From IMG/VR virus record IMGVR_UViG_3300036773_000096, positions 32,001-96,000 of that record: a stretch of DNA of 64,000 bases, one strand, 5' to 3'. Shown here in pieces: positions 1,443 to 38,177 of this stretch. Each line of letters begins with the position of its first letter. Position 1 is the stretch's first letter. Source of the DNA: a virus. The notes under the pieces were generated by a model. It ran no database searches and had not been told where the DNA came from. It saw only the letters and a list, made by a program, of their open reading frames with translations. The position numbers and the translations under genes were made by a program.

Positions 1443-3185
1443 TTAGGCCGCCGCGTAGGTCTCGACGATGCTTTCCCTCACCTTGAGGTCCGCCCGACGC
1501 AGGCGCGCGTCACTGGCGTAGGCGTAGAGCAGCGCTTGGAAGCGCATACGGAACGTGGTGCCGGCCGCCGCCGTGACGGGGATGGTCACCGTCCAGGTGT
1601 TCTGGATGCCCGGCGCCTGCGGGAACGTCCCGTCCACCGTGGTCGCGGCGGCCTCCTGGTAGTCGGTGTCGGCCAGCGTGAACGAGCCTCCGCCGATGGA
1701 GTAGAACCAGCGAATCTGGAGCACCTGGCGATCAGGGTTGGCGCCGGAGTTCTGCTTAAAGAACAGCGCTTCGAGACGCATCTCGACCTCAAGCTGCGTG
1801 ATCGACGCGCTGCGCACGGTCATCGTGGGCCAGTCGTAGGTGAAGCTGCCGTTGCTGGCGACGAACTGGCCGTCGGGGTAGTCGCCGGGCACCACCCAGA
1901 TCTTCTTACTGGTGTGCAGTACCGGCTGGCGGACGTCGCGCAGGTGGTTGGGTTTGGTGCCGCTGCCCCGCCACGGGGCGTTGGATGACATCTGCCCGAT
2001 CGGGCTGACCTTCGCCACGATCACCTGATCCGGCGCCCCGGAGATGATCTCCGACTGGTACCAGCGAGACAGATCCCCGGTCCATGTCGCCGTCGACGAT
2101 GGGTAGGAGGCGAAGCGGGCGGCGTCGCGGGTGGGGTCACCGTAGTTGTTGAACTGGGTGCCCACCGTGGAACTCAGACCATTGGCCTGATCAATCCCGA
2201 CGAAGCCTGTCATGCCAGGGAACGGGTTGAACGGGGTGGAGCCCGACTGCGAGGCGGCGTTGGGGAACCACGCGAGACGCGCGGTGGCCAGCTTCACCAG
2301 GCTCGCCCCGACGTCCAGCTCACCGGTCCAATCAGTGGCGATCCGGCCGATGCTGATCAGGTTCGGGGCCACGGAGAAAATCGACGCCGCGTCGGAGCTG
2401 CCCGGCTGGAAACGGTTCGCTTGCCAGATCACCCGCGTCGGTGCGGACTCCTGCCCGTAGCCCAGCAGACCCGTGTTGATGGCCCCAGTGGCTTGCGGTG
2501 CCACCGACAGCCCCGCAGCCGTGCTGGGTGTGACCCCACCGAACGCGGCGCTCTGGGTGGACGTGAGCTGTCCCGTGCCCGAGATGGTCAACACGTTGCT
2601 GCCGCTGGAGTCGATCGCCCGCAGCAACTCCGTGACGTTGGTGTCGCCGGCCTTCAGCTCCAGCGCCCGCTCCACCCCGAACGCGGTGATCCGGGCTCGC
2701 ACGGCCGCCGGCAGCGAGTCCAGGGAACCGACCGCGAGACGGCCGATGGTGGGCTCGGCGGCGTTGCCCAGGATCAGGGCGTTGCGGGCCTTGACCGTGC
2801 CATCCCATGACGAGGTCAGTCCAGCGGTGGCGACGCTGGCGTGCTCAATACGCAGCGCCTCAGCGGTAACAGCCGGCGCGGTGTCCGGGGGGCGCACCAG
2901 TAGGCGTTCGGGGATCCAGGACTGCGCATGCCAGGAACCGCCCGCATCGGTGCGGTAGAGGGAGTAGGCGGTGACGCCGGAGCCCAAATCCAGGGTGCGC
3001 TGGAAGTACTCGGCGGACACCAGCGCGGGCGAGCCGACCGGCAGGGTGGCCCCGGCGGTGCGCTGATCGACCGCGACCCGCGTCTCTAAGTCCAGGAAGT
3101 CGGTGTTGAACCCGGTCCGCGAGGGAGAGTCGACGCCGCTAGACCACTGCTCCAGCCCCAGCCGGGGGGTGCGGGTGAGGGTCAC
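1443..3185 (-). CDS. Tail fibre / receptor-binding protein
   Basis: 580 aa, G/S/T-rich beta character, N-terminal TPRLGL baseplate-attachment-type motif, follows baseplate J and I. Confidence 0.75.
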   Translation of the reverse strand: MTLTRTPRLGLEQWSSGVDSPSRTGFNTDFLDLETRVAVDQRTAGATLPVGSPALVSAEYFQRTLDLGSGVTAYSLYRTDAGGSWHAQSWIPERLLVRPPDTAPAVTAEALRIEHASVATAGLTSSWDGTVKARNALILGNAAEPTIGRLAVGSLDSLPAAVRARITAFGVERALELKAGDTNVTELLRAIDSSGSNVLTISGTGQLTSTQSAAFGGVTPSTAAGLSVAPQATGAINTGLLGYGQESAPTRVIWQANRFQPGSSDAASIFSVAPNLISIGRIATDWTGELDVGASLVKLATARLAWFPNAASQSGSTPFNPFPGMTGFVGIDQANGLSSTVGTQFNNYGDPTRDAARFASYPSSTATWTGDLSRWYQSEIISGAPDQVIVAKVSPIGQMSSNAPWRGSGTKPNHLRDVRQPVLHTSKKIWVVPGDYPDGQFVASNGSFTYDWPTMTVRSASITQLEVEMRLEALFFKQNSGANPDRQVLQIRWFYSIGGGSFTLADTDYQEAAATTVDGTFPQAPGIQNTWTVTIPVTAAAGTTFRMRFQALLYAYASDARLRRADLKVRESIVETYAAA

Positions 3186-3403
3186 GGCGTGATCGTGTCA
3201 GGCACAGTGGGGTCCGACTGGGAGTGACACGCGGGCGGCAGGTCGCCGGGGGCAGGAACGCTCATGGCAGCCGGGCGGAATCCCCAGGACCCGCATGCTG
3301 GGCACGCGGGTCAATGACCCAGCCGAACGCACCTTAACCGCTGGACTATGAAGTGGCGGGGACGGCCTTGACCCCCCAGCGGCGACCTGGGCACACCCTA
3401 TGG

Positions 3404-27485: not shown

Positions 27486-30400
27486 CTAGCCCACCGTGGC
27501 GGTCGCCCGGCCCTGCAATGCACCCGTGCCGCACGACGGGCACGGCGCCGTGCCGACCATCCCGTAGGCGGGGATCATGATGTCGTTGCCGCACTCCGGG
27601 CACGGGGCAACCTTTACGAGCATCCCGGATGCGTCCATGACGTAGCGGTAGCCCTCGATGACGGTGTCCTCGTAGGACTCCACATCTTCCGGCCCGTCGG
27701 TGTCGGGGCCGTCAGCGTCGGTGTCCGACGGTTTGGGGCCCTGCTGCGCGCGCAGCTTGAACTCGACACCCAGCCGAGCGGCGCGCAGCATCGTCAATTC
27801 ATCGACCAGCGACCCGGCCGTCTTCTCCTCGACCACGAGGTGACGCTTCCACACCGCGTCGATTTTCGCCCGCTCCGCGTCCGCCTCGGCCTGTCGCGCG
27901 GCCTCTTTCGCCTTGCGGATCCGCTCGCGCTCCTCATAGGGCTTGGAGTAGTCCGGGGCCTCGTAGCCGCCGCTGTAGCCGGGCTGAATGCGACGGTTGA
28001 TCGCCCAGTGCCCCTCGGCCCACGGGAAGTCCAGCGCCGCGAGGTCGTCGAGCAGGGCGTGAACGTTGTCGATGGCCCCGCGCGCATCATCGGGTCGGGG
28101 GATCAGCTCCCCGTCCGACGTCATGAACACTTCCAACTTGTTCCCGCTGCCCAGGGCGGCCAGAGTGCCATCCGGGGACGCGGCGGCATCCGGGGACGCG
28201 GCGGGGATGGAGAACCGCTTCAGGCGGTCCTTTTCCGGCCCGGCGCTGCCCCGGCCCATGAGGGCGACCTTCGCGCTTGCCTTCGTCCGTGCCGTGGCTA
28301 GACCCTTAGTCGCCTCATCCTGCTGCGGGCCGGCGTCGCCTTTCATGCCGGCGGCCTCCATGGCGGCCTGCAACCGTGCTGACTCGGCCGTGGCTTCCTT
28401 CAGCGCGGCGGCGTGAGCGAACGGCACCCCGATGCGGGCCTTCATCGTCGCGGCTTCGCTGCGCAGCGACGCGGCCCGGTCAACCTGAAGGTCGCGGCGG
28501 AACTCCAGGTTGTTCAGCGAGTTCGCCAGGGTGGTGTTGATGCCCGCGCCGAGCTTCTCGACGTCGCTGGGGCTGATGTGCACGATGTTGCCGGGCAGGC
28601 CCTCCCAGGACAGTGTCATCCCAAAGCGCTTCGTGCCGAGCTTGTCGTAGTGGACCTCCGGCTGACCCAGCAGCACGTGACCGCCGATGGTGCCCAGCGG
28701 CTTGGGCTTCGACCCGGCGTAGCCGTAGCGGCGTTCCCGGATCTGATCCTGCATCGCCGACTTCAGCAGGGTCGCCCCGTCGGCGCGGGTCCGGGCGGTG
28801 ATGCCGGCGACGTTGATGGAGTACTTGTCACCGCTGATGTCGGTGCGCTTGGCGATCGCCGCGTTGTAGGCGGCGGCGTCGGCGTCGGCCTGCTCCGCGT
28901 TGGCCCCGTAGGAGACCACGTCGCGCCGTAGGTTGGTTTGGGTACGGGCGTGCTGGCGCTCCAGGCGGGTGAGCTTGCCGACCGTGACGTCGACTTTCGC
29001 CTTGTCCATGAGTAGCGGGTTGCCGGTGGCCAGGGCCTTGACTTCGGCGTAGGACAGGGCGGTGTCGCCGACGTCTTCGATCTCTCGGACGTCGCCCATC
29101 TTGCCGCGCATGATCTGGTCGATGAACTTCTTTTTGCGCTCCAGGGTCTGCCACATATAGGCGTCGAAGCTGCCCTCGGTGACGTAGCGGAAGATCGCGA
29201 CCTCTTTGTTGGTGTTGCCCTGGCGCATGATTCGGCCGTCGCGCTGCTCCACATCGCTGGGGCGCCACGGGGCGTCGAGGTGGTGCAGCGCGACCGCGCG
29301 GCGCTGCACGTTGGTGCCGACACCCATTTTTTCCGTCGACCCCACCAGCACGGAGACCTGACCGTTGCGGGCGGCGGCGAACAGCTCCGCTTTCTCCCGG
29401 TCGTTTTTGGCCTCGTGCATGAACCGGATCGACTTCGGGTCCATGCCACGGGCGGCCAGCTCGTCACGCAGCTTCTGGTAGGCGTTCATGCCGGCACCGC
29501 CGGGTGTGCCCATGTCGCAGAACACGATCTGCATGCCGCCCGGCGGCGGGTCGTCGCCACCAGCGGGGTCGTTGATGTCTTTCGGGACGGGCCGGTCTTT
29601 GTTCGCATCCCAGATCTTGTAGATGTTGTCGGCCGCCTCTTCGATCTTGCCCGGCTGGTGCTTCTCTCCCACCAGCGCCATGCTCAGGGCGGCCTTGCGA
29701 CCATCACCGGAGATCTTGAGCATGTTGTCGTCTTCGGGCTTGACCTTGCCGTTGCGGACATCCTCGGCGCGCTGGCCCAACTCCTGGACGTAAGCCGACA
29801 ACTCCGGCGACGCCGGCACGATGACGTTCTGCACCCCACCTGTGGCCAGGTCCGGGGTCTTCAGGTTCAGGTCATCGGCCATCTTCACATCAGCGAACAG
29901 GTGGAACAATCGCAGCAACTCAGGAACGTTGCGGAACTTCGCGAAGCGCGTGGTCTGGCGGAACCCCGTACCCTCAGGCTTGAGTTCCATCTCATCAACG
30001 GTCTTGCCGAACGTCGCCGCCCACTGGTCGAATGAGTGAATACCGGCCTCGCGCAACGTCTCAGGGTCGAGGAACCGTTGCATGATGTATGCCTGGGTGA
30101 CCGTGTTGCGGATCGGGGTGCCCGTGGCGAACGTTCCCACCCGGCCCGACTTATTGTTCGCCCGCAGGTGCTCCATTTTCATGTGCAGGTCCGACGCCAT
30201 GTCCGATCCGGTCGCCCCCGCGCCCTGGATGTTGGAGATGGTGCGCAGGTTGGAGTACATATGCGCCTCGTCGACACACAGGTAGTCGATGCCGGTCTCC
30301 TCCCAGCTCACCCCGGCATCCTTAACCTTGTCCAGCTTCGCCTTCAGGGCCTCCTCAGCCTTGATCAGCGAGTTCTCCATTTTCTTAACGGTCTTCTCTT

Positions 30401-33400
30401 TAGCGGAGTCCCCCGCCGCCGACGCCTGCGCAGACGCGAGCTGCGCTTTCATCGTCGCCATTTCCCGGTCAATGTAAGCCTGCATCGCCGGGCGAGACAT
30501 CGGGATGGCTTCCATGGCCTTTTGAGTGAGGATAATGGCATCCCACTCACCCGTGGCCGCACGCGCGACGAACTCCCGGCGCTTATCCCCAGCCAGATCA
30601 TCGGTACCGGCGGCCAGGACCTTAGCGTTGGGGTAGATCTGGAGGTATTCGCGGGAGAACTGCTCCAGCATGTGATTGGGAATGACAATGGCGGGCTTGT
30701 TCGCCAGGCCCAGTCGCTTCAGCTCAGCGGTGCCCATCGCCATCTCAGCGGTCTTGCCGGCGCCGACGACGTGAGCGAGCAACGCGCACGGCTCGGACAC
30801 CATGCGGTTGACCGCCCCCACCTGATGATCGAAGGGGTCGAAGCTGTCGGCCATGCCGGGGAACACCCGTGGCATGTCGTCATAGGAGCGCAACCGGATC
30901 GCGTTGAACTGGTTGTTGTAGGCGGCCAGCAGGCGCCGGGTGCGATCGGAGTCCTCCCACAGCCACTCGGAGAACCGATCCGACAACTCCTCGGCCTTGG
31001 CCTGGGCGGCAGTGGTCGCCTCCAGGTTCGGGTAGGACTTCGACTTGCCGTCGGCGTCTTTGATGGTGTCGCGGACCTGGATGGACCGCTGCTCCAGCAG
31101 GGACTGAATGATCTCCCCGGCGGAGAGCCGGTCAGTGCCCCACTCCTCAGTGGCCTTAGTGCCCCACTGGCCGCCTTCCACGGTCCAAATGCCGCCACCT
31201 GACGTAGAGACCTTGATGGAGTGGTACGGGTCATCGCCGTCGGAAAGCAGCTCCACCATGAACGCGCGGACGTCGTCAGCGGGGATCCACGCGGCCCCCA
31301 GGCGCCCGTCGACCTCGTCGACACCCAGGTCCGGGGGGATCACCGCTTCCAGCGCGGTGACGTTCTTAGCGAAGCGGTCATCACGCTTGGCGGCCTCACG
31401 GGCGGCGGCGAGCTTGCGGCGCACGTTGCCGGACAGGTACGCGGCGGCCGGCTCCAGGGAACCTTCGGAGCGAACCGCCTCACCGACGGAGTCCAGCGCG
31501 GAAGTGTCCGGGGCGTCGTCGAGGTTCAGCCCCGCTGAGATCCCGCCGAAACGCCCGCCGTCGCTGGCGATCCCGGATGCCTCTTCGATGTGGGCGCGGA
31601 ACGCGGCGTCGGCGTCGGCCGCTGACAGTGGTGGCTGCTCGAAAACCAGATCACCCAGGCGCTCGCGTGCGCCGGCCTCATCGGTGTCCAGCATGGTGGC
31701 GATCGCGGGGAGGTTCACCCGGCCGTAGGTGTCCATGGACAGCGCGACGGCGTCCTCGGGACTGTCAGCGTGGGTGGGGATCTCCCGTGGGGTGCTGGCC
31801 CGTTTGCGGAAGATGCTGGTCTTGGATTCGGTGCCGGTCTCGGCGTCGTAGGCGCCCAGGGCGCGCACGATCGCCGACATGGGGTCTTTGCGGAACAGGT
31901 TGCGCGCCGGGTCGGGCTTGCGCGCCCCCGATTTGGTCAGCGTGTAGTGGTTGACCGGCCCGTACTTTTTGGTGAACGCGTCGTAGCGGTCATTGAGCTG
32001 CTTGCGTAGTGCTTTGATGTCCGGGGAGTCCGACACCGACGCCGCTTCAGCGGCCAGCAGAGACCGCAGGGTGTCACGGAGGCCGATCAGCCCACGCACC
32101 GCCTCAGCGTGCTTGGCGGGCACGTCCAGTGCCACGGCGGTGCCCTGTTCGGCCTGGGTGAACGTGCCGTCTTCGTGGGCGGCGATGTGGCCTTCGTGGC
32201 GGTCATCATCCGGGGTGGTGAACGCCGTGAGGCCTTCCATGCGGGGTGACGCGGTGATCCCGTCGGCTTTCGCCGCTGCCACGATCCGGTCCAGCGCGGC
32301 CGGCAGGTCGGCCATCGTCTTGTCACCCTTGACGATCAGTGACCCGGTGCCGTACTGGCCCTTCTCTGCGGTGACCTCACCCAACATTTGCTCGGGATGG
32401 GCAGTGAAGTAGTCGTTGATGGTGATCGTGTGGCCGTTGATGTCCTGATCGTGAGAGTTCACCCAGTCCTGCGACGTCAAAGGCGCCGCGTCGGGCTCCC
32501 GGCGTCGGAAGATCAGGGCGTCTTCGATGACGTCGGTGCCGGAGATCCGGGAGTGCCCCCCGGTGGGTAGGCGCACGGCGCCGACCAGGTCACCCAGCTC
32601 GGCCAGCTTCTTACGCGCGGCGGAGTCTTTCGAGTCCAGGGTGTAGCGCGACGTGAGCAGCGTGACCAGCCCGCCGGGCTTGGTCTGAGCCAGGGCCTTG
32701 GCGATGAAGTGGTTGTGGATCGACATTTTGCGGCCGGGGTTGTGCACCCGGTCGGTCAGGGCGAAGTCACCGAAGGGGACGTTGCCGATCGCAGCGTCGA
32801 ACGAGCCGGCCGGTAGCCGGGTGGCCGCGTAGGACTCGTTTCTTATCGTCGCGTGCGGGTAGAGGGCACGAGAGATCGCAGCTGTCGTCGAGTCCAACTC
32901 GACTCCGACCATGTCGGCGTGCTCGGGTGCGAATCCGATGAACGTTCCGGATCCGGAGCCGGGTTCGAGGACGCGACCACCGTCGAACCCCAGATCTCCC
33001 ATTGCCTTCCACAGCGATTGCACCACGCGGGGGTCGGTGTAGTGGGCGTTGAGGGTATTGCGGCGAGCCTCTGCCCATTCAGAGTCCGACAGCAGTCCAC
33101 GCAGCTCCTCTCGTTGTTTCGCGTACTCGGGTTTGTTGTCGTCGAAGACTTCCGGCAGGCCACCCCAGCCGGCCCAACGCGCGAGCGTGGCCTGCTCTTC
33201 GGGGGTGGCGGCGCGGCGTTCGTCTTGCAACTGGCGCAGGGTGCGCAGCGCCGCGAGGTTCGCTTCGAGCTTCGACTTCTTACCGGCCGGGGCGAAGTCG
33301 TCCAGGCCGGTGGGGTGAAAGGACTCCCCGGTGTCGGGGATCGCATCGACCTGCCCGACGTCGGCGCTGGGCTGATCAGTTTCGGTTACGTCAGGTGCGC

Positions 33401-36400
33401 TGGGCGCTCCGGCAGTGTCGGCATCGCCGCCTTCGCGCTGTCCCGGTGCTGCTGCCTCAGTTCCTCCTGGGCTGCCTGGAAGTCCGCCAGTGCTTGAGTC
33501 AGCGCCTGATCCGTCGGATCCTCCGTCGGCACCATCGACGGGTCCGGTGTCGCCGGCAGTGGCAGCGCGTTGTCCGGGGCGTTCGGGGGCGGCGGGCTCA
33601 TCAGGAACTCCCGCATCACCTTCTCCGTCGCCGCTTGCTGCGCGGCGTTCAGGCGCCCCAGCTTCTCTGGGTAGCTCTCCCCCTCCGGATCCGGCCCCGC
33701 CAGTTGGTCGGCTGTCTGCTGTATCTGCTGGCGCGCTTGCTCGGCCAGGTCGTCGAAGAACGTCTGCTTGTCCTTGATCCCCGCGTACGCCTGCGGCTGG
33801 TACGTCCGGTACCACGCTTCGGCTTGCCTCGCCAGAACTCCCACGATCATCACCCTCTCTCTGGGGCGATTGTGCACCCTTGGCGCGGTCGCGTTGTCCC
33901 GTGACGATTCCCCGCGCTTTATCCCACAGGCGCTGGCGCTCCGGATTCAGCTCTTGAGCCTGATCGAGGTGAGCGAATGCGCCCTCGAAATCGCCACCAT
34001 CGGCGGCGGCGCGAGCTTCCCGCATGTGCTCCTGAGCGCGGGTAACGCGGTTGCCGTCGGCGGCTAGTCGGGCGTCGCGCTCATCGCGGCGAACCTGCTG
34101 CGAGTGCGGCGCGGGTTCAGTGGACGGCGCGGCGGTGCTCGGAACCGGACCCTTGCGGGGTGCGTCCACCGCGCCGCGCTTGCCATCCTCCGGCGCGCCC
34201 TTGCGGCGGCGCAACTCCGCGTCCACTGACCCGATCAGCGACTTGATGCGGTCGCGGTCCAGGCGCTTCGCGAGCCGACGGGCTTTCGCGCCCTCGTTGC
34301 GCTTCACTCGGCGCTGCTCACGCAACGCCCCGGCTGCGGTAAACAGCATGCCGGCCTTGAGCTTCCCGGACGCGATGGCGGTATGGATGTCCCCGTCGCC
34401 GATGGCGGTGCGGATGTCGTCGAAGGCCGTGGAGTCCCCGTGGCGGCGCAGCATCTTCGCGAAGCGTTCAGCGGCGGCAGCGACCGCAGCGTCATCACGC
34501 GGAGTCGCGTTCAGAGCATCGCCCAGATCCTCAGCGGCACCCGCGACACCGGGACGGACCTTCGGGCCGGTATCTTCCGGGCCGGCCGGGGCGTCCGTCG
34601 CCGACACGGAAGACGCCCCGGCTTCCGCCTTCCGGGTCGCTGCCTCCCGCTTGCGTTCGGTGTCGCGACGGTGCAGTTCGTCCTGAAGCGCGAGTTCGTC
34701 AGTGAGGTCTTTGCGGGTTTCGGTCAGCTGCGGGTCGGTCTGGTCAGCCAGACCAGCCTCACCGGTCTCCAGCAGTGCCGCCACCCGCTCCTGGCGGTCG
34801 GCGACCTCCTGAGTGACCTCCTCCTGCCCGTCGGGGCCGTCCGACAGACCCAGGGCCTCGCCCCGGATGCGGTGGGCGGAGTCGGCGACCTCCGGCGGCA
34901 CGGGCACGGTGCCGTCCGGGGTGCCGGCGGGCACTTCCCCGCCAGTGGACTCCGGTGCCTTCGGGTGCTCACCCAGCGGCAGCGTGGCGAAATCGTGGCG
35001 ACCGATGCCGGCGGCGTCGCGGCGCTCGTAGTCGTCGGCGCGGTCTCGCATCCGCTTGGCTTCACCGTCAGACGCGCCACCGCCCGTCTTGTCGGCGCGC
35101 TTGCGCAGTTCGTCGGGAGTGATGCGGCGCCGGATCTCCTCCGTGCGGACACTGTCGGCCATGTTGGCGCCGTGCCCACCACGTCGGGTGGCTTCCCGCT
35201 TGACCGACGCAAGCTCAGTGTCGTCGAGCTGGCGCAGCGCGGCGTCCCGGTAGGCGGGGTGACTGCGCTTCTGGATTGCCGAGTAGTCGATCTGGCCCGG
35301 CGCGGGGCGCAGTGGGTCCGGCTTGACCTTCGGCCCTCCGGTGTCCTCCGGTGCGGTCGCCGGAGGCTGGTCACCGGGGGTGTCGGGGTTCTCGTCGGCG
35401 TGCAGCGCGCCCCGGACGTGGCGGGTGTACTCGGCCAGGTTCTCGTGCAGCAACTGGCGCTGCGGGGAACCCGCGCGGGGCTTGCCACCCACCTGGACCT
35501 TCGAGTTGTCGGCCTTCAGCGCCGCGACGATGCGCTGAAGGCCGTCCAGGGTGGCGTGCAAGGTAGCCGAGTCAGGTGCCTCGGCCATCTGGTTCTTAAC
35601 CCGGATCAGTTCAGCGGCCAGCTTCTCCGGCGTTTTCGCCGACGGGGAGTCCAAACTGCCACGGGCGATGGTCGCCGCGTGGGCGAGCGCCGGGTCGCTC
35701 TGGTCGCGGGCGAGCGTCGCCAGCGCGGCGGACAGATGCGGGGCACTGACATGCCCAGACAGTTGGGCGAGCAAAGCGGAATCATCGGGGGCGGCCGGAG
35801 TGACCAGTGGGTGCGCGTCGACTTCGGGGGCCGGTGTCGATTCGGCGACGGTCGCGGCGGCGCGGCGGCGCGACTCGTCACCGAAGCGGGTAGCGGCGAG
35901 CTTCGAGTCGGAGTACTCCAGGGAGTTCTTAGGCAGGTTGTTGCGCCGCGCCGTCATGTGCCGCTCGTGCGCGGCGGCGGACTCCGCCGCGAGCTGCGCG
36001 TCGGTCAGCTTCTCGGGGGCGTTGTGGTTCCCGGTGGGCTTGTATTCGTGCTCGGGCGCGGCCTGGGGCTTGTTCGGGTCGACAGCCGGGGTACCGGCGG
36101 ACACCAGTGGCAGGGCAGAGCGGTTCTTAACCCCGCGTGTTTGGGTGCCGCCACCCGTGCCGTCGTCGTAGGTGATCAGTGTTTGCCCGGTGCGGCCCGG
36201 CTTGGCCTGGGTGACTTTGCCGCCATCGTGGCGCGACAGCATGACGTGGTCACCCGCGCGGACCTCACTGGCTTTCACCGTGGGGTAGCTGCCGGGCTTG
36301 ATGCCGTAGGTGTTGACCAGCACCGGGGTGCCGTACTTGCGGTCATCAGCAGGCGCGGCCGGCGCTTCCGGAGTGGCTGGCGGCGTCTTTGGCAGGTCGT

Positions 36401-38177
36401 AACCGCCGGGGATGGTGTTCGCACCGGCCGTCACGGTGGTGGTGCCGTCGGCGTGGGCGGTGCCTACCGGATTCGGCTTAACGGGCGCGGCGGGCGCGGG
36501 CGGGTTAGCGTGCGGTGCTGCCCCCGGTGGAACCGCCGGAGCCGGTCCTGCGACGCCCGGCTTTTGCTGCCCGCCATCGGGGGCAGCGCCGGCCTGTGGA
36601 GTCACTGCCTGCGCGGCGACCGCGTCGAGACGCTTGGCGGCGACCTCCGATGGCAGCACCAGCAGGCTGGCGGCCATCTCGTGCGGGTCCTGATCGGGCG
36701 GCAGACCCATCCGCGTGAGGGCTTCCGCGAGGGCGTCACGATCCTGGGTGGCGATCGCCGATTCGGCGTCATCGCGGGCGCCGGCCGCGTCGACTTCACC
36801 GACGGGCGCGGGGGCGGAGAACGGGGTGATCTGAGACAGGACGTCGCGGACGGCCTGCTGGTCGGCGCTGCGCTGCTTGGCGTTGGCCCACCGCTTCTTA
36901 CGCGCTTCGATGTCATCCCAGGGGATGCCGATCTGGGTGAGGTGATCCAGCGCGGCGTCGATCTGGTCGGGGGGCGCGTCGGGGGGGATCTGGGCGGCGT
37001 TGGACAGGCCGCTGCCCGCATTGGCGGTGTCGACGATTGTCCAACCGGCGCCTCCGTGGACGGCGGCGAGCTGCCCATCGGTGGACGCGTGGACATCAGC
37101 GCCGGGGGCGGCGAACTGGGCGAGCATCGCCAGGGAGTTCTCGGCCAGGCTGGAGTCACCGAACGCCGGGGTCTTCTGGACCTGCTCATTGAGTTCCTGG
37201 TACCGCTGATGCAGCGCGGCTAGTGCTTTGGAGACACCGGGGCCGGGCGGCGCGAGCGGGGCTAGGGCAGGGTCACCGGGCGCGCCGGCAGCACCGGGTG
37301 TGCCCGGCTTGGCGGGCATTCCGGGGCCACCGTGGAGCTGCTGGGGCTTGACCGGCCCACTGGCGCCTTCCGGTGCGGTGGTGGCCGCGATCTGTGCGGT
37401 GGTGGGTGTCTGGCCGCTGCGGGGACGCATGCCGGCTTTGATGGGGGTGCCTAGGGGCATGCCCCAGAACTCGGCGTCGCGCACGACACGGATGCCCTTG
37501 TACTCCACGCCATCAAGCACAGTGGTCCCCTCGTCGGTGACACCGGAACGAGACTCATCGTACCAGATGTCCCCGACACCTTCGGAGAGAGATTTCACCC
37601 CCGTGAGGTGCGCGAGCTTATGTGCCCCGTGCAATACCTGGGACCACTCATACAAATCATAGTCATGCAGGTAACGCTTACCGCTGCGCATCCGATAACC
37701 ACCGGGGCGCACCTTATACCCAATGGAGAAACATTCCTCCGGCCCGTAGAACTTAGCGTCCGCGTAAGCGTCGCGGCCGATCTCTTTATCCAGGTTGTAC
37801 TTCGCCTTGATCAGCAGACCGCCCGCGTTGGCCGGCCACGGCTCACCCTGCGGAGTCGTCTTAGGCAACTGCGGGTCACCCGGCATGAGTTCCTTCGACC
37901 ACACCAGCCGCGACACCTTCGCTGACCAGTTGTGCGACATCACGCCCTTGGGCTTCAGCCGCTTGATCGCGGTGGCCAGCGAGCCCGGCACGATGACGTC
38001 GCCGACCTCATCGACCACCCCAGAGACCGCGACCAGCGCCGTGATCGTGCCGTCGGCGTCGTCGTGACCGATCACCCCGGTCAGCGGGGAGGTCATCTCC
38101 GCTGTGGGCAGCGCCTTCCACTCCAGCGCATCCATGTCCTCCGGAGTGTCGACGTCATCCGGGAACGTTGTGGTCAC
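27486..38177 (-). CDS. 3563-aa fusion: HK97-type prohead protease + long linker + N6-adenine methyltransferase + SNF2-like helicase (DarB-like) + zinc ribbon
   Basis: Protease: DEVGDVIVPGS, GVMSHNW, FSIGY, LYEWSQV. MTase: VLEPGSGSG, GNVPFG. Helicase: HVVGAGKT, DEAH, ATGTP, HHLDAPWRPSDVEQRDGRIMRQGN. C-terminal CPECG/CPSCG. Confidence 0.92.
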   Translation of the reverse strand: MTTTFPDDVDTPEDMDALEWKALPTAEMTSPLTGVIGHDDADGTITALVAVSGVVDEVGDVIVPGSLATAIKRLKPKGVMSHNWSAKVSRLVWSKELMPGDPQLPKTTPQGEPWPANAGGLLIKAKYNLDKEIGRDAYADAKFYGPEECFSIGYKVRPGGYRMRSGKRYLHDYDLYEWSQVLHGAHKLAHLTGVKSLSEGVGDIWYDESRSGVTDEGTTVLDGVEYKGIRVVRDAEFWGMPLGTPIKAGMRPRSGQTPTTAQIAATTAPEGASGPVKPQQLHGGPGMPAKPGTPGAAGAPGDPALAPLAPPGPGVSKALAALHQRYQELNEQVQKTPAFGDSSLAENSLAMLAQFAAPGADVHASTDGQLAAVHGGAGWTIVDTANAGSGLSNAAQIPPDAPPDQIDAALDHLTQIGIPWDDIEARKKRWANAKQRSADQQAVRDVLSQITPFSAPAPVGEVDAAGARDDAESAIATQDRDALAEALTRMGLPPDQDPHEMAASLLVLPSEVAAKRLDAVAAQAVTPQAGAAPDGGQQKPGVAGPAPAVPPGAAPHANPPAPAAPVKPNPVGTAHADGTTTVTAGANTIPGGYDLPKTPPATPEAPAAPADDRKYGTPVLVNTYGIKPGSYPTVKASEVRAGDHVMLSRHDGGKVTQAKPGRTGQTLITYDDGTGGGTQTRGVKNRSALPLVSAGTPAVDPNKPQAAPEHEYKPTGNHNAPEKLTDAQLAAESAAAHERHMTARRNNLPKNSLEYSDSKLAATRFGDESRRRAAATVAESTPAPEVDAHPLVTPAAPDDSALLAQLSGHVSAPHLSAALATLARDQSDPALAHAATIARGSLDSPSAKTPEKLAAELIRVKNQMAEAPDSATLHATLDGLQRIVAALKADNSKVQVGGKPRAGSPQRQLLHENLAEYTRHVRGALHADENPDTPGDQPPATAPEDTGGPKVKPDPLRPAPGQIDYSAIQKRSHPAYRDAALRQLDDTELASVKREATRRGGHGANMADSVRTEEIRRRITPDELRKRADKTGGGASDGEAKRMRDRADDYERRDAAGIGRHDFATLPLGEHPKAPESTGGEVPAGTPDGTVPVPPEVADSAHRIRGEALGLSDGPDGQEEVTQEVADRQERVAALLETGEAGLADQTDPQLTETRKDLTDELALQDELHRRDTERKREAATRKAEAGASSVSATDAPAGPEDTGPKVRPGVAGAAEDLGDALNATPRDDAAVAAAAERFAKMLRRHGDSTAFDDIRTAIGDGDIHTAIASGKLKAGMLFTAAGALREQRRVKRNEGAKARRLAKRLDRDRIKSLIGSVDAELRRRKGAPEDGKRGAVDAPRKGPVPSTAAPSTEPAPHSQQVRRDERDARLAADGNRVTRAQEHMREARAAADGGDFEGAFAHLDQAQELNPERQRLWDKARGIVTGQRDRAKGAQSPQREGDDRGSSGEASRSVVPDVPAAGVRGDQGQADVLRRPGRASAPADTADSRPTGGAGSGGGELPREAGAPERRAASGDGEGDAGVPDEPAAPERPGQRAATAGDTGPVDGADGGSDGSGADSSTGGLPGSPGGTEAAAPGQREGGDADTAGAPSAPDVTETDQPSADVGQVDAIPDTGESFHPTGLDDFAPAGKKSKLEANLAALRTLRQLQDERRAATPEEQATLARWAGWGGLPEVFDDNKPEYAKQREELRGLLSDSEWAEARRNTLNAHYTDPRVVQSLWKAMGDLGFDGGRVLEPGSGSGTFIGFAPEHADMVGVELDSTTAAISRALYPHATIRNESYAATRLPAGSFDAAIGNVPFGDFALTDRVHNPGRKMSIHNHFIAKALAQTKPGGLVTLLTSRYTLDSKDSAARKKLAELGDLVGAVRLPTGGHSRISGTDVIEDALIFRRREPDAAPLTSQDWVNSHDQDINGHTITINDYFTAHPEQMLGEVTAEKGQYGTGSLIVKGDKTMADLPAALDRIVAAAKADGITASPRMEGLTAFTTPDDDRHEGHIAAHEDGTFTQAEQGTAVALDVPAKHAEAVRGLIGLRDTLRSLLAAEAASVSDSPDIKALRKQLNDRYDAFTKKYGPVNHYTLTKSGARKPDPARNLFRKDPMSAIVRALGAYDAETGTESKTSIFRKRASTPREIPTHADSPEDAVALSMDTYGRVNLPAIATMLDTDEAGARERLGDLVFEQPPLSAADADAAFRAHIEEASGIASDGGRFGGISAGLNLDDAPDTSALDSVGEAVRSEGSLEPAAAYLSGNVRRKLAAAREAAKRDDRFAKNVTALEAVIPPDLGVDEVDGRLGAAWIPADDVRAFMVELLSDGDDPYHSIKVSTSGGGIWTVEGGQWGTKATEEWGTDRLSAGEIIQSLLEQRSIQVRDTIKDADGKSKSYPNLEATTAAQAKAEELSDRFSEWLWEDSDRTRRLLAAYNNQFNAIRLRSYDDMPRVFPGMADSFDPFDHQVGAVNRMVSEPCALLAHVVGAGKTAEMAMGTAELKRLGLANKPAIVIPNHMLEQFSREYLQIYPNAKVLAAGTDDLAGDKRREFVARAATGEWDAIILTQKAMEAIPMSRPAMQAYIDREMATMKAQLASAQASAAGDSAKEKTVKKMENSLIKAEEALKAKLDKVKDAGVSWEETGIDYLCVDEAHMYSNLRTISNIQGAGATGSDMASDLHMKMEHLRANNKSGRVGTFATGTPIRNTVTQAYIMQRFLDPETLREAGIHSFDQWAATFGKTVDEMELKPEGTGFRQTTRFAKFRNVPELLRLFHLFADVKMADDLNLKTPDLATGGVQNVIVPASPELSAYVQELGQRAEDVRNGKVKPEDDNMLKISGDGRKAALSMALVGEKHQPGKIEEAADNIYKIWDANKDRPVPKDINDPAGGDDPPPGGMQIVFCDMGTPGGAGMNAYQKLRDELAARGMDPKSIRFMHEAKNDREKAELFAAARNGQVSVLVGSTEKMGVGTNVQRRAVALHHLDAPWRPSDVEQRDGRIMRQGNTNKEVAIFRYVTEGSFDAYMWQTLERKKKFIDQIMRGKMGDVREIEDVGDTALSYAEVKALATGNPLLMDKAKVDVTVGKLTRLERQHARTQTNLRRDVVSYGANAEQADADAAAYNAAIAKRTDISGDKYSINVAGITARTRADGATLLKSAMQDQIRERRYGYAGSKPKPLGTIGGHVLLGQPEVHYDKLGTKRFGMTLSWEGLPGNIVHISPSDVEKLGAGINTTLANSLNNLEFRRDLQVDRAASLRSEAATMKARIGVPFAHAAALKEATAESARLQAAMEAAGMKGDAGPQQDEATKGLATARTKASAKVALMGRGSAGPEKDRLKRFSIPAASPDAAASPDGTLAALGSGNKLEVFMTSDGELIPRPDDARGAIDNVHALLDDLAALDFPWAEGHWAINRRIQPGYSGGYEAPDYSKPYEERERIRKAKEAARQAEADAERAKIDAVWKRHLVVEEKTAGSLVDELTMLRAARLGVEFKLRAQQGPKPSDTDADGPDTDGPEDVESYEDTVIEGYRYVMDASGMLVKVAPCPECGNDIMIPAYGMVGTAPCPSCGTGALQGRATATVG
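33386..33850 (-). CDS. TnpV-like protein nested out of frame within the giant ORF
   Basis: GAGAGAGGG RBS, ATG at 33850 (or GTG 33844); strongly G/C-ending codons in this frame; pattern QPQAY..LAEQARQ..EKLGRLNAAQQAATEKVMREFL resembles TnpV (PF14198). Confidence 0.75.
   Translation of the reverse strand: MIVGVLARQAEAWYRTYQPQAYAGIKDKQTFFDDLAEQARQQIQQTADQLAGPDPEGESYPEKLGRLNAAQQAATEKVMREFLMSPPPPNAPDNALPLPATPDPSMVPTEDPTDQALTQALADFQAAQEELRQQHRDSAKAAMPTLPERPAHLT

Follow-up and report, generated by a model that had tools for sequence, protein, structure and literature searches.

The pair formed by comS and srfA of Bacillus subtilis, in which comS lies inside srfA, is an embedded gene pair. Another is Rz/Rz1 of phage lambda: the +1 frame of the i-spanin gene contains the gene for the o-spanin, which physically partners with the i-spanin, and gene callers routinely overlook the arrangement (PMC6139136). 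Phage P1 DarB and the polyvalent proteins that combine a methyltransferase (MTase) with a superfamily 2 (SF2) helicase have been described in a paper that is silent on both TnpV and overlapping frames (PMC5512222). TnpV itself (PF14198) was first named in the Clostridium elements Tn4451/Tn4453, and its role in excision has merely been postulated from a resemblance to lambda Xis (Tn4451; PMC3158075). Here, we have analyzed a stretch of 64,000 nucleotides (hereafter the window), corresponding to bases 32001-96000 of the complete 120-kb IMG/VR phage record IMGVR_UViG_3300036773_000096 with its direct terminal repeats, in which a TnpV-like gene appears to be embedded out of frame in a DarB-like giant gene. 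With a probability of roughly 0.85, window positions 33386-33850 on the minus strand are a genuine dual-coding region from which two proteins are read.

An initial annotation, made from the sequence alone, had proposed here a same-strand, out-of-frame open reading frame (ORF) with its own purine-rich ribosome-binding site and strongly G/C-ending codons, facing off-frame-like text rich in G/R/P/A in the giant frame. Each listed element was checked at the locus, and thus every one of them is known to be present. The features concerned are the following.

27486..38177, minus strand: giant ORF of 3563 codons, a polyvalent protein (ORF list and translation)
33386..33850, minus strand: embedded TnpV-like gene, from ATG 33850 to TAA 33386-33388, 154 amino acids, isoelectric point 4.6 (acidic)
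33853..33862, minus strand: Shine-Dalgarno-like purine run AGAGAGAGGG, 2 nucleotides upstream of the nested ATG
33384..33851, minus strand: giant codons 1443-1598, a stop-free low-complexity linker overprinted on the TnpV gene (composition, AlphaFold2, stop avoidance)

The nested frame is offset by +1 from the giant ORF. As listed, the ORF extends over 33386..33877 (minus strand) and counts 163 amino acids from a GTG, but ATG 33850 is the start in homologues and yields the 154-residue protein; an alternative GTG start lies at 33844. The nested frame has a normal high-GC codon signature, with G+C contents at the three codon positions (GC1/GC2/GC3) of about 0.7/0.45/0.86. In an AlphaFold2 model with a predicted local distance difference test score (pLDDT) of 74.5, the protein has four N-terminal helices (residues 3-84) and, after a disordered Pro-rich stretch, a helix at the C-terminus (residues 112-141).

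Across the same bases the giant frame changes character. Its GC3 falls to 0.38-0.54 over about 33850-33400, versus about 0.9 on either side, and codons 1443-1598 encode 85% G/R/P/A/D/E/S and 7% hydrophobic residues, as compared to 54 and 26%, respectively, in the MTase-helicase part. For residues ~1436-1631 AlphaFold2 returns a pLDDT below 50 and no secondary structure, and this predicted-disordered stretch sits between confident upstream helices and the downstream N-terminal helices of the MTase. Composition and predicted disorder bear out the off-frame appearance of the giant text. The initial annotation had also stated that neither ATG nor GTG occurs between the nested stop and the MTase motif; in the window this is correct for the giant frame up to ESFHPT and extends to TTG as well. 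The sole start-like codon of the overlapped giant segment is a GTG about 12 codons in.

The same arrangement recurs in related loci. The sample comprised three related phage contigs, annotated plasmids and 36 genome loci from a profile scan (alignment A3) in Micromonospora, Arthrobacter, Paenarthrobacter, Pseudarthrobacter, Citricoccus, Kribbella and Solirubrobacterales metagenome-assembled genomes, and is a convenience sample rather than a census. No stop interrupts the frame -1 to tnpV anywhere along the nested ORF in 40 of 41 loci and in all five further plasmids (45/46 in total), and this frame usually runs on for 1680-2100 amino acids into the MTase-helicase. The relation between both frames is constant, the nested gene being always in +1, while the third frame contains 3-9 stops in the six loci counted. 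Stops also interrupt the giant-equivalent frame of the sole actinobacterial copy without a downstream helicase (Kribbella, L024). A complete small +1 ORF is therefore found inside a larger same-strand ORF, and it brings its own initiation signals: the Shine-Dalgarno-like run and ATG seen in the window have counterparts in most homologous loci, where GGAGG-type sites precede the nested ATG. In most loci, including the window and plasmid pTC2 of Paenarthrobacter aurescens, the stretch from the tnpV stop to the conserved N-terminus of the MTase offers no start that could be used. The tight linkage of the TnpV-like gene to DarB-like methylase-helicases, which the initial annotation had mentioned for conjugative elements, is borne out.

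Two types can be distinguished by what precedes tnpV. In phages and Micromonospora plasmids, 425-1537 giant-frame codons with a normal coding signature lie upstream. In a short plasmid type, the helicase ORF starts 76-130 nucleotides upstream of the tnpV ATG with its own Shine-Dalgarno sequence and ATG (GTG in a few loci), and opens with a conserved N-terminal peptide of ~25 amino acids that contains basic residues, (I/V)(D/E)GQ(L/A)S(F/L)(E/D)A(L/F)(W/L) and then PEE (L003:1129-1204, L015, L016, L020, L030, L036 and others). The window has no counterpart of this peptide, which may resemble a linker-tethered beta-clamp-binding (QL[SD]LF-like) or PIP-like motif. Two contigs labeled 'Vibrio cholerae strain 35D' (L032 and L042, WNZI01) have Arthrobacter-type tnpV/helicase loci whose layout almost coincides with that of the Arthrobacter plasmids, and are probably contaminant or misassigned contigs. 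In the Actinacidiphila glaucinigra plasmid NZ_CP109145 (L048, record positions 237478-263736), an 89-residue TnpV-like gene lies ahead of an 8752-residue 'UvrD-helicase domain-containing protein' and is spanned by the frame of the latter.

Beyond the Actinomycetota, alternative frames were examined in several DarB-like giants found by tblastn with the MTase region of the window. Canonical PF14198 TnpV genes are nested in nine giant ORFs in DNA of 37-53% GC, located on gut contigs and on Enterococcus and Cohnella plasmids. Four human-gut contigs (43-52% GC) encode a full-length PF14198 TnpV (E 1.7e-41, 3.9e-39, 6.9e-32 and 1.2e-24), preceded by an AGGAG-type Shine-Dalgarno sequence and contained, at +1, in host ORFs of about 2200-3200 codons. 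On an Enterococcus faecalis plasmid (locus GC 37%), tnpV lies inside a 2097-codon ORF annotated as 'SNF2-related protein', and the remaining cases are giant ORFs of a Cohnella plasmid and of three further gut contigs. The embedded tnpV genes of five of these loci (L054, L057, L058, L060 and L061) have a GC3 of 0.65-0.76 in DNA of 43-52% GC, which fits a codon choice shaped by keeping the host frame stop-free. Translation of alternative frames in other DarB-like giants, as the initial annotation had suggested, thus uncovered the same hidden gene in both phage and plasmid giants. Its placement of the gene right before the MTase applies to the actinobacterial, Vibrio and Ralstonia cases but not to the gut-type giants, where about 690-1290 codons separate tnpV from the downstream MTase, or tnpV is found close to the N-terminus.

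The Vibrio and Ralstonia cases are leads only. Vibrio phage VvAW1 (NC_020488; L053:2540-2866) and Ralstonia phage UAM5 (OV121131; L055:2741-3061) each have a +1 ORF of about 107-109 codons in a DarB-like giant, with an AGGAG(G) Shine-Dalgarno sequence and immediately before the MTase module. Both ORFs look like embedded genes: the nested GC3 amounts to 0.75 and 0.91, respectively, the nested text is helical and the host frame is G/R/E-rich and of low complexity. The VvAW1 ORF weakly matches the hidden Markov model (HMM) of the actinobacterial TnpV-like family (E 5e-4 in a tiny database), the UAM5 ORF does not match this HMM, and neither ORF has a Pfam match. A 209-residue +1 ORF next to the MTase of L052 was rejected as junk-like; the real embedded TnpV of L052 is located further upstream. 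As controls, four stand-alone TnpV genes were inspected, three of them in small recombinase-bearing elements or beside tet(O) and one on a gut contig, Tn4451-like contexts being among them. The giant-equivalent frame is closed in all four.

Whether chance alone keeps the giant frame open was addressed by synonymous-codon shuffles of the nested gene, which give the probability of an open giant frame, P(open). Values range from 0.03 to 0.6 per high-GC locus, and their product over 11 diverged actinobacterial lineages is 10^-7.9. In same-length stretches of the single-coding helicase parts, the corresponding frame is open in 24-53% of cases at four of the 11 loci and in 0-7% at the remaining seven. 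Shuffles of six low-GC loci yield a P(open) of 0.006-0.13 each, with a product of about 1e-9; among them, the host frame of the four human-gut contigs is free of stops versus 2.3-3.7 expected from shuffles (P(open) 0.006-0.047). Some long same-strand overlaps are expected to arise neutrally under compositional models (PMC2542354), yet the closed-frame controls together with the low-GC cases argue for selection over a neutral origin. Selection is thus indicated on both frames, on the nested one by protein conservation and bias at codon position 3 and on the host frame by stop avoidance, set against the closed-frame controls.

The nested ORF is supported as a real gene under purifying selection, to judge from the patterns in the sequences. 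Five metagenomic proteins of 151-172 amino acids, called as genes of their own and sharing 90-50% identity, retain its motifs along the full length. A profile search of 1.84 billion cluster representatives retrieved 1213 clusters at 50% identity with E<=1e-3, 784 of them at E<=1e-10; the best 150 of the 1213 family clusters are all 90-303 residues long, and none of these 150 is fused in frame to a long protein. In Arthrobacter-type pairs, substitutions pile up at position 3 of the nested codons (e.g., 0.27 versus 0.06 and 0.04 per site), and change at nested synonymous sites is modestly lowered in several lineages (e.g., 0.14-0.20 versus 0.23-0.27, and 0.22-0.31 versus 0.44-0.49). The conservation of the nested frame in homologues, on which the initial annotation had made its proposal depend, is thus evident: ORF, ATG and Shine-Dalgarno sequence are intact in more than 50 loci from several phyla, with proteins diverged to 30-50% identity. 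A tblastn search of INPHARED phages returned zero matches with either the window protein or an Arthrobacter-type copy, and a scan of metagenome contigs with alignment A1 found no confirmed relatives.

The kinship of the nested protein with TnpV is distant. A tblastn search with the nested protein finds 24 actinobacterial plasmids with E-values down to 2e-8, many of the genes being named 'TnpV protein' by the Prokaryotic Genome Annotation Pipeline (PGAP), and the nearest Atlas clusters are labeled 'TnpV protein family'. Eight of 18 close relatives match PF14198 in a scan at E<=0.05 (best E 4e-6), the window protein not being among them; the one relative with a score given reaches 21.9 bits, below the 27-bit cut-off. 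Profile-profile comparison with hhalign aligns the family (alignment A4) to a canonical TnpV alignment of seven sequences, five of which were scanned on PF14198 (E 1e-24 to 1e-41), with a probability of 96% and an E-value of 4.5e-9 over 82 columns (query 3-84, template 26-115). The core is therefore homologous to canonical TnpV. The full-length architecture is not shared, as the actinobacterial family opens with the first helix and misses the first ~25 PF14198 positions. Membership of the window copy follows from transitive and profile-profile homology, and the nested protein is best described as a distant member of the TnpV superfamily that is shortened at the N-terminus relative to the Pfam model.

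The host gene can be described in more conventional terms by its domains.

37581..38072, minus strand: head maturation protease domain of the giant (residues 36-199; phrog_80, E 1.1e-13)
28308..33302, minus strand: DarB-like N6-adenine MTase and SF2/SNF2 helicase dyad (residues ~1626-3290; phrog_10089, E 7.9e-172 and 1.2e-208)

From the N-terminus, the giant consists of the head maturation protease, a long Pro/Ala-rich and helical middle part, the overprinted disordered linker, the DarB-like MTase-SF2 helicase and a Zn-finger-like C-terminal tail. The MTase-helicase part opens with the conserved module ESFHPT...APAGK...ANLAAL (alignment A5); Helicase_C matches at E 4.3e-6, and the matches of SNF2-rel and ResIII are weak. 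With an MTase fused to an SF2/SNF2 helicase and an N-terminal module, the giant is DarB-like, and tblastn with its MTase region retrieves 90 phage records at E<=1e-20, several of which are annotated as DarB-like. As Iyer et al. 2017 (PMC5512222) use the term, it qualifies as a 'polyvalent protein', with a predicted domain set that fits a virion-packaged, injected anti-restriction protein. Just before the overlap, a helical hairpin ends (window 33890-34040, giant residues ~1380-1430; pLDDT about 90, weak TPR_2 match). In the related phages L006 and L008 this hairpin is replaced or extended by a segment of ~60 amino acids (…NGYVTVRESKGTTVDVFPRQLE…), which the window and the related phage L007 do not have.

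Several observations weigh against our interpretation. The initial annotation had itself cautioned that the giant frame may stay open by chance; this caution holds for the window alone, where P(open) is about 0.17 (open in 17% of shuffles) and not significant, but fails for the family, given the product of 10^-7.9 over 11 lineages. Pairwise comparisons lend modest support to an extra constraint on synonymous sites of the nested frame, and such constraint is absent in the closest pair, the window and L006 (0.130 versus 0.137). The proposed TnpV identity stands as superfamily kinship, with TnpV-named neighbours and the hhalign result in its favor, but not as a direct match: searches of the window protein against Pfam, NCBIfam and PHROG gave no TnpV match, PF14198 produced none at E<=1 and the protein falls short of the PF14198 gathering score (27 bits). 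PDB searches, by profile against sequences and by Foldseek with the AlphaFold2 model, returned nothing meaningful, and structure thus offers no functional clue. The partner role discussed below has conserved genetic linkage as its sole basis. Finally, inspection of P1 darB revealed no embedded ORF, indicating that TnpV is not generally needed by DarB-type enzymes.

Four other explanations have to be weighed against dual coding. The PGAP records, listing 'TnpV protein' and then 'helicase-related protein' as neighbours, invite the view that an upstream head protein, tnpV and the MTase-helicase are merely adjacent genes, with the frame between them open through high-GC third positions, and single high-GC loci with a P(open) of 0.03-0.6 are compatible with this. 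We consider it very unlikely, since neither the window nor pTC2 has a start codon between the tnpV stop and the MTase N-terminus, the starts chosen by PGAP (TTG, GTG, CTG) cut into or past conserved sequence, and it is the upstream Shine-Dalgarno sequence, start and N-terminal peptide that are conserved. Moreover, ribosomes coming from the upstream 1442 codons meet no stop and must continue, the combined chance of 10^-7.9 is joined by open frames at 37-53% GC (P 0.006-0.13 per locus), and the frame is closed where the giant gene is absent. A programmed -1 frameshift would explain why the giant frame is shifted by exactly -1 from that of tnpV and why the strongest Shine-Dalgarno sequence of the short-type plasmid loci precedes the tnpV ATG: ribosomes would start there and slip near the end of tnpV to give a TnpV-MTase-helicase fusion, as in IS3 OrfAB or dnaX. 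This explanation is highly improbable, because a slippery heptamer (X_XXY_YYZ) is not conserved, with zero heptamers in the window, L006, L007, pTC2 and five others, and because the giant frame is already open well before tnpV begins, and not just from the 3' end of tnpV. The lack of long fusions among the best 150 family members and the position of the gut-type tnpV, about 690-1290 codons upstream of the MTase, speak against it as well.

The codon signature of an older frame can outlast a gene fusion for a while, and tnpV might accordingly be a dead relic captured at such a seam, with the giant frame alone being expressed. A relic would have gained stops and lost its start, however, whereas ORF, ATG and Shine-Dalgarno sequence are intact in the more than 50 loci from several phyla mentioned above and the substitution pattern is that of purifying selection on the nested frame. 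Integrity across proteins diverged to 30-50% identity rules out a dead relic, to which we give as little credence as to the frameshift. Least credible of all, and practically negligible, is an assembly artefact or a recent compensated double frameshift in a tolerant linker. Two indels would indeed make the coding signature switch frame and back within one ORF, as is seen here, but related phages that were assembled independently (L006, L007, L008) and finished plasmids show the same structure, which rules out sequencing error; besides, a start and a stop of its own delimit the nested frame, and homologues also occur as stand-alone genes.

In the dual-coding model that we prefer, the giant polyvalent protein would be translated straight through from its start at 38177: as its frame is stop-free, ribosomes that start there must read through and yield one polypeptide. 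Codons 1443-1598 would then form a disordered tether rich in G/A/D/P/S/R that connects the DarB-like methylase-helicase to an N-terminal part directed at the head (prohead protease plus helical region). The acidic, helical TnpV-superfamily protein of 154 amino acids would be initiated independently at the internal Shine-Dalgarno sequence and ATG in the +1 frame, and we infer that both products are made. The TnpV frame is the constrained and presumably the older one; the giant linker was overprinted on it and seems to be selected mainly for freedom from stops. This layout was probably already present in the ancestor of a wide range of DarB-like giant genes from plasmids and phages. Being embedded, tnpV could not be separated from the giant gene and would be transcribed together with it. 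Such near-obligate embedding in DarB-like genes points to a partnership dedicated to the giant, in which TnpV may serve as chaperone or adaptor or may regulate how the giant is loaded or how active it is.

A wider generalization is possible but tentative, and we hold it to be less probable than its negation. TnpV may be an obligatory small subunit, encoded by an embedded gene, of a large class of polyvalent (DarB-like) proteins that are injected or transferred and belong to phages, plasmids and conjugative elements of Bacillota, Actinomycetota and Proteobacteria. As a chaperone, adaptor or regulator, it might bind the giant, possibly at the very linker encoded opposite to it, and be needed for packaging, transfer or activation. 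Embedding would then predate the divergence of these elements between phyla, and the stand-alone 'transposon' copies would be escaped or relict.

The annotation of these loci in RefSeq is inconsistent, as illustrated by L045:7399, L046:7531, L047:7119, L049:2602, L001:7728-15236, L061:8481-14678 and L064:9336-15433. PGAP handles them in three ways. Either it reports tnpV and a 'helicase-related protein' starting at a TTG, GTG or CTG in or beyond conserved sequence, at some loci even inside tnpV; or it reports one spanning 'helicase' or 'SNF2-related protein' and omits tnpV; or it reports tnpV only, as for the Cohnella plasmid, whose 2086-codon ORF is missing from the PLSDB gene table that lists tnpV. 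The expectation of the initial annotation that standard pipelines would miss the gene was thus close to the mark, since the helicase is truncated, tnpV is dropped or the giant itself is dropped. Our analysis exposes a systematic annotation error that affects hundreds of records of plasmids, integrative and conjugative elements and phages.

Prokaryotes very rarely have long, fully embedded same-strand overlaps with conservation across phyla. With its 110-160 codons and its persistence at 37-45% GC, the present overlap is, small viruses apart, among the clearest comparative examples of dual coding. The orphan TnpV family gains a concrete genomic partner in the DarB-like polyvalent anti-restriction giants, and its function thereby becomes testable. 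The overprinted disordered tether also indicates that a gene fusion can cross an intervening gene in another frame without destroying it. In the open-access literature, we found no paper that links TnpV to DarB-like or polyvalent proteins or describes the overlap.

Compared to the known systems, the window combines familiar elements in a different way. With the TnpV proteins of Tn4451/Tn4453 and their relatives, the nested protein shares a small size (110-150 amino acids), a helical nature, an origin in mobile elements, a core that aligns profile to profile and a common C-terminal helix motif (...N..R.QAEE.V...L). It differs by its extra Pro-rich tail and C-terminal helix, by the missing ~25 first model positions and by its setting, as the TnpV of small mobilisable transposons stands alone beside a serine recombinase whereas the window copy is embedded in a giant gene. 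The giant, in turn, has the DarB-like dyad of phage P1 DarB and the polyvalent MTase-SF2 helicase proteins (PMC5512222), plus a protease domain, while P1 darB opens directly with the MTase module. The gene arrangement itself corresponds to Rz/Rz1 and comS/srfA in that a complete small gene with its own start occupies the +1 frame of a larger gene. Unlike Rz/Rz1, other families and another biology are involved, the embedded gene is the older and structured one, the overlapped part of the host is a disordered linker, and the TnpV overlap is long (110-160 codons) and conserved across phyla. We thus rate the locus as an embedded gene pair of known architecture, with new families and an unusually deep conservation.

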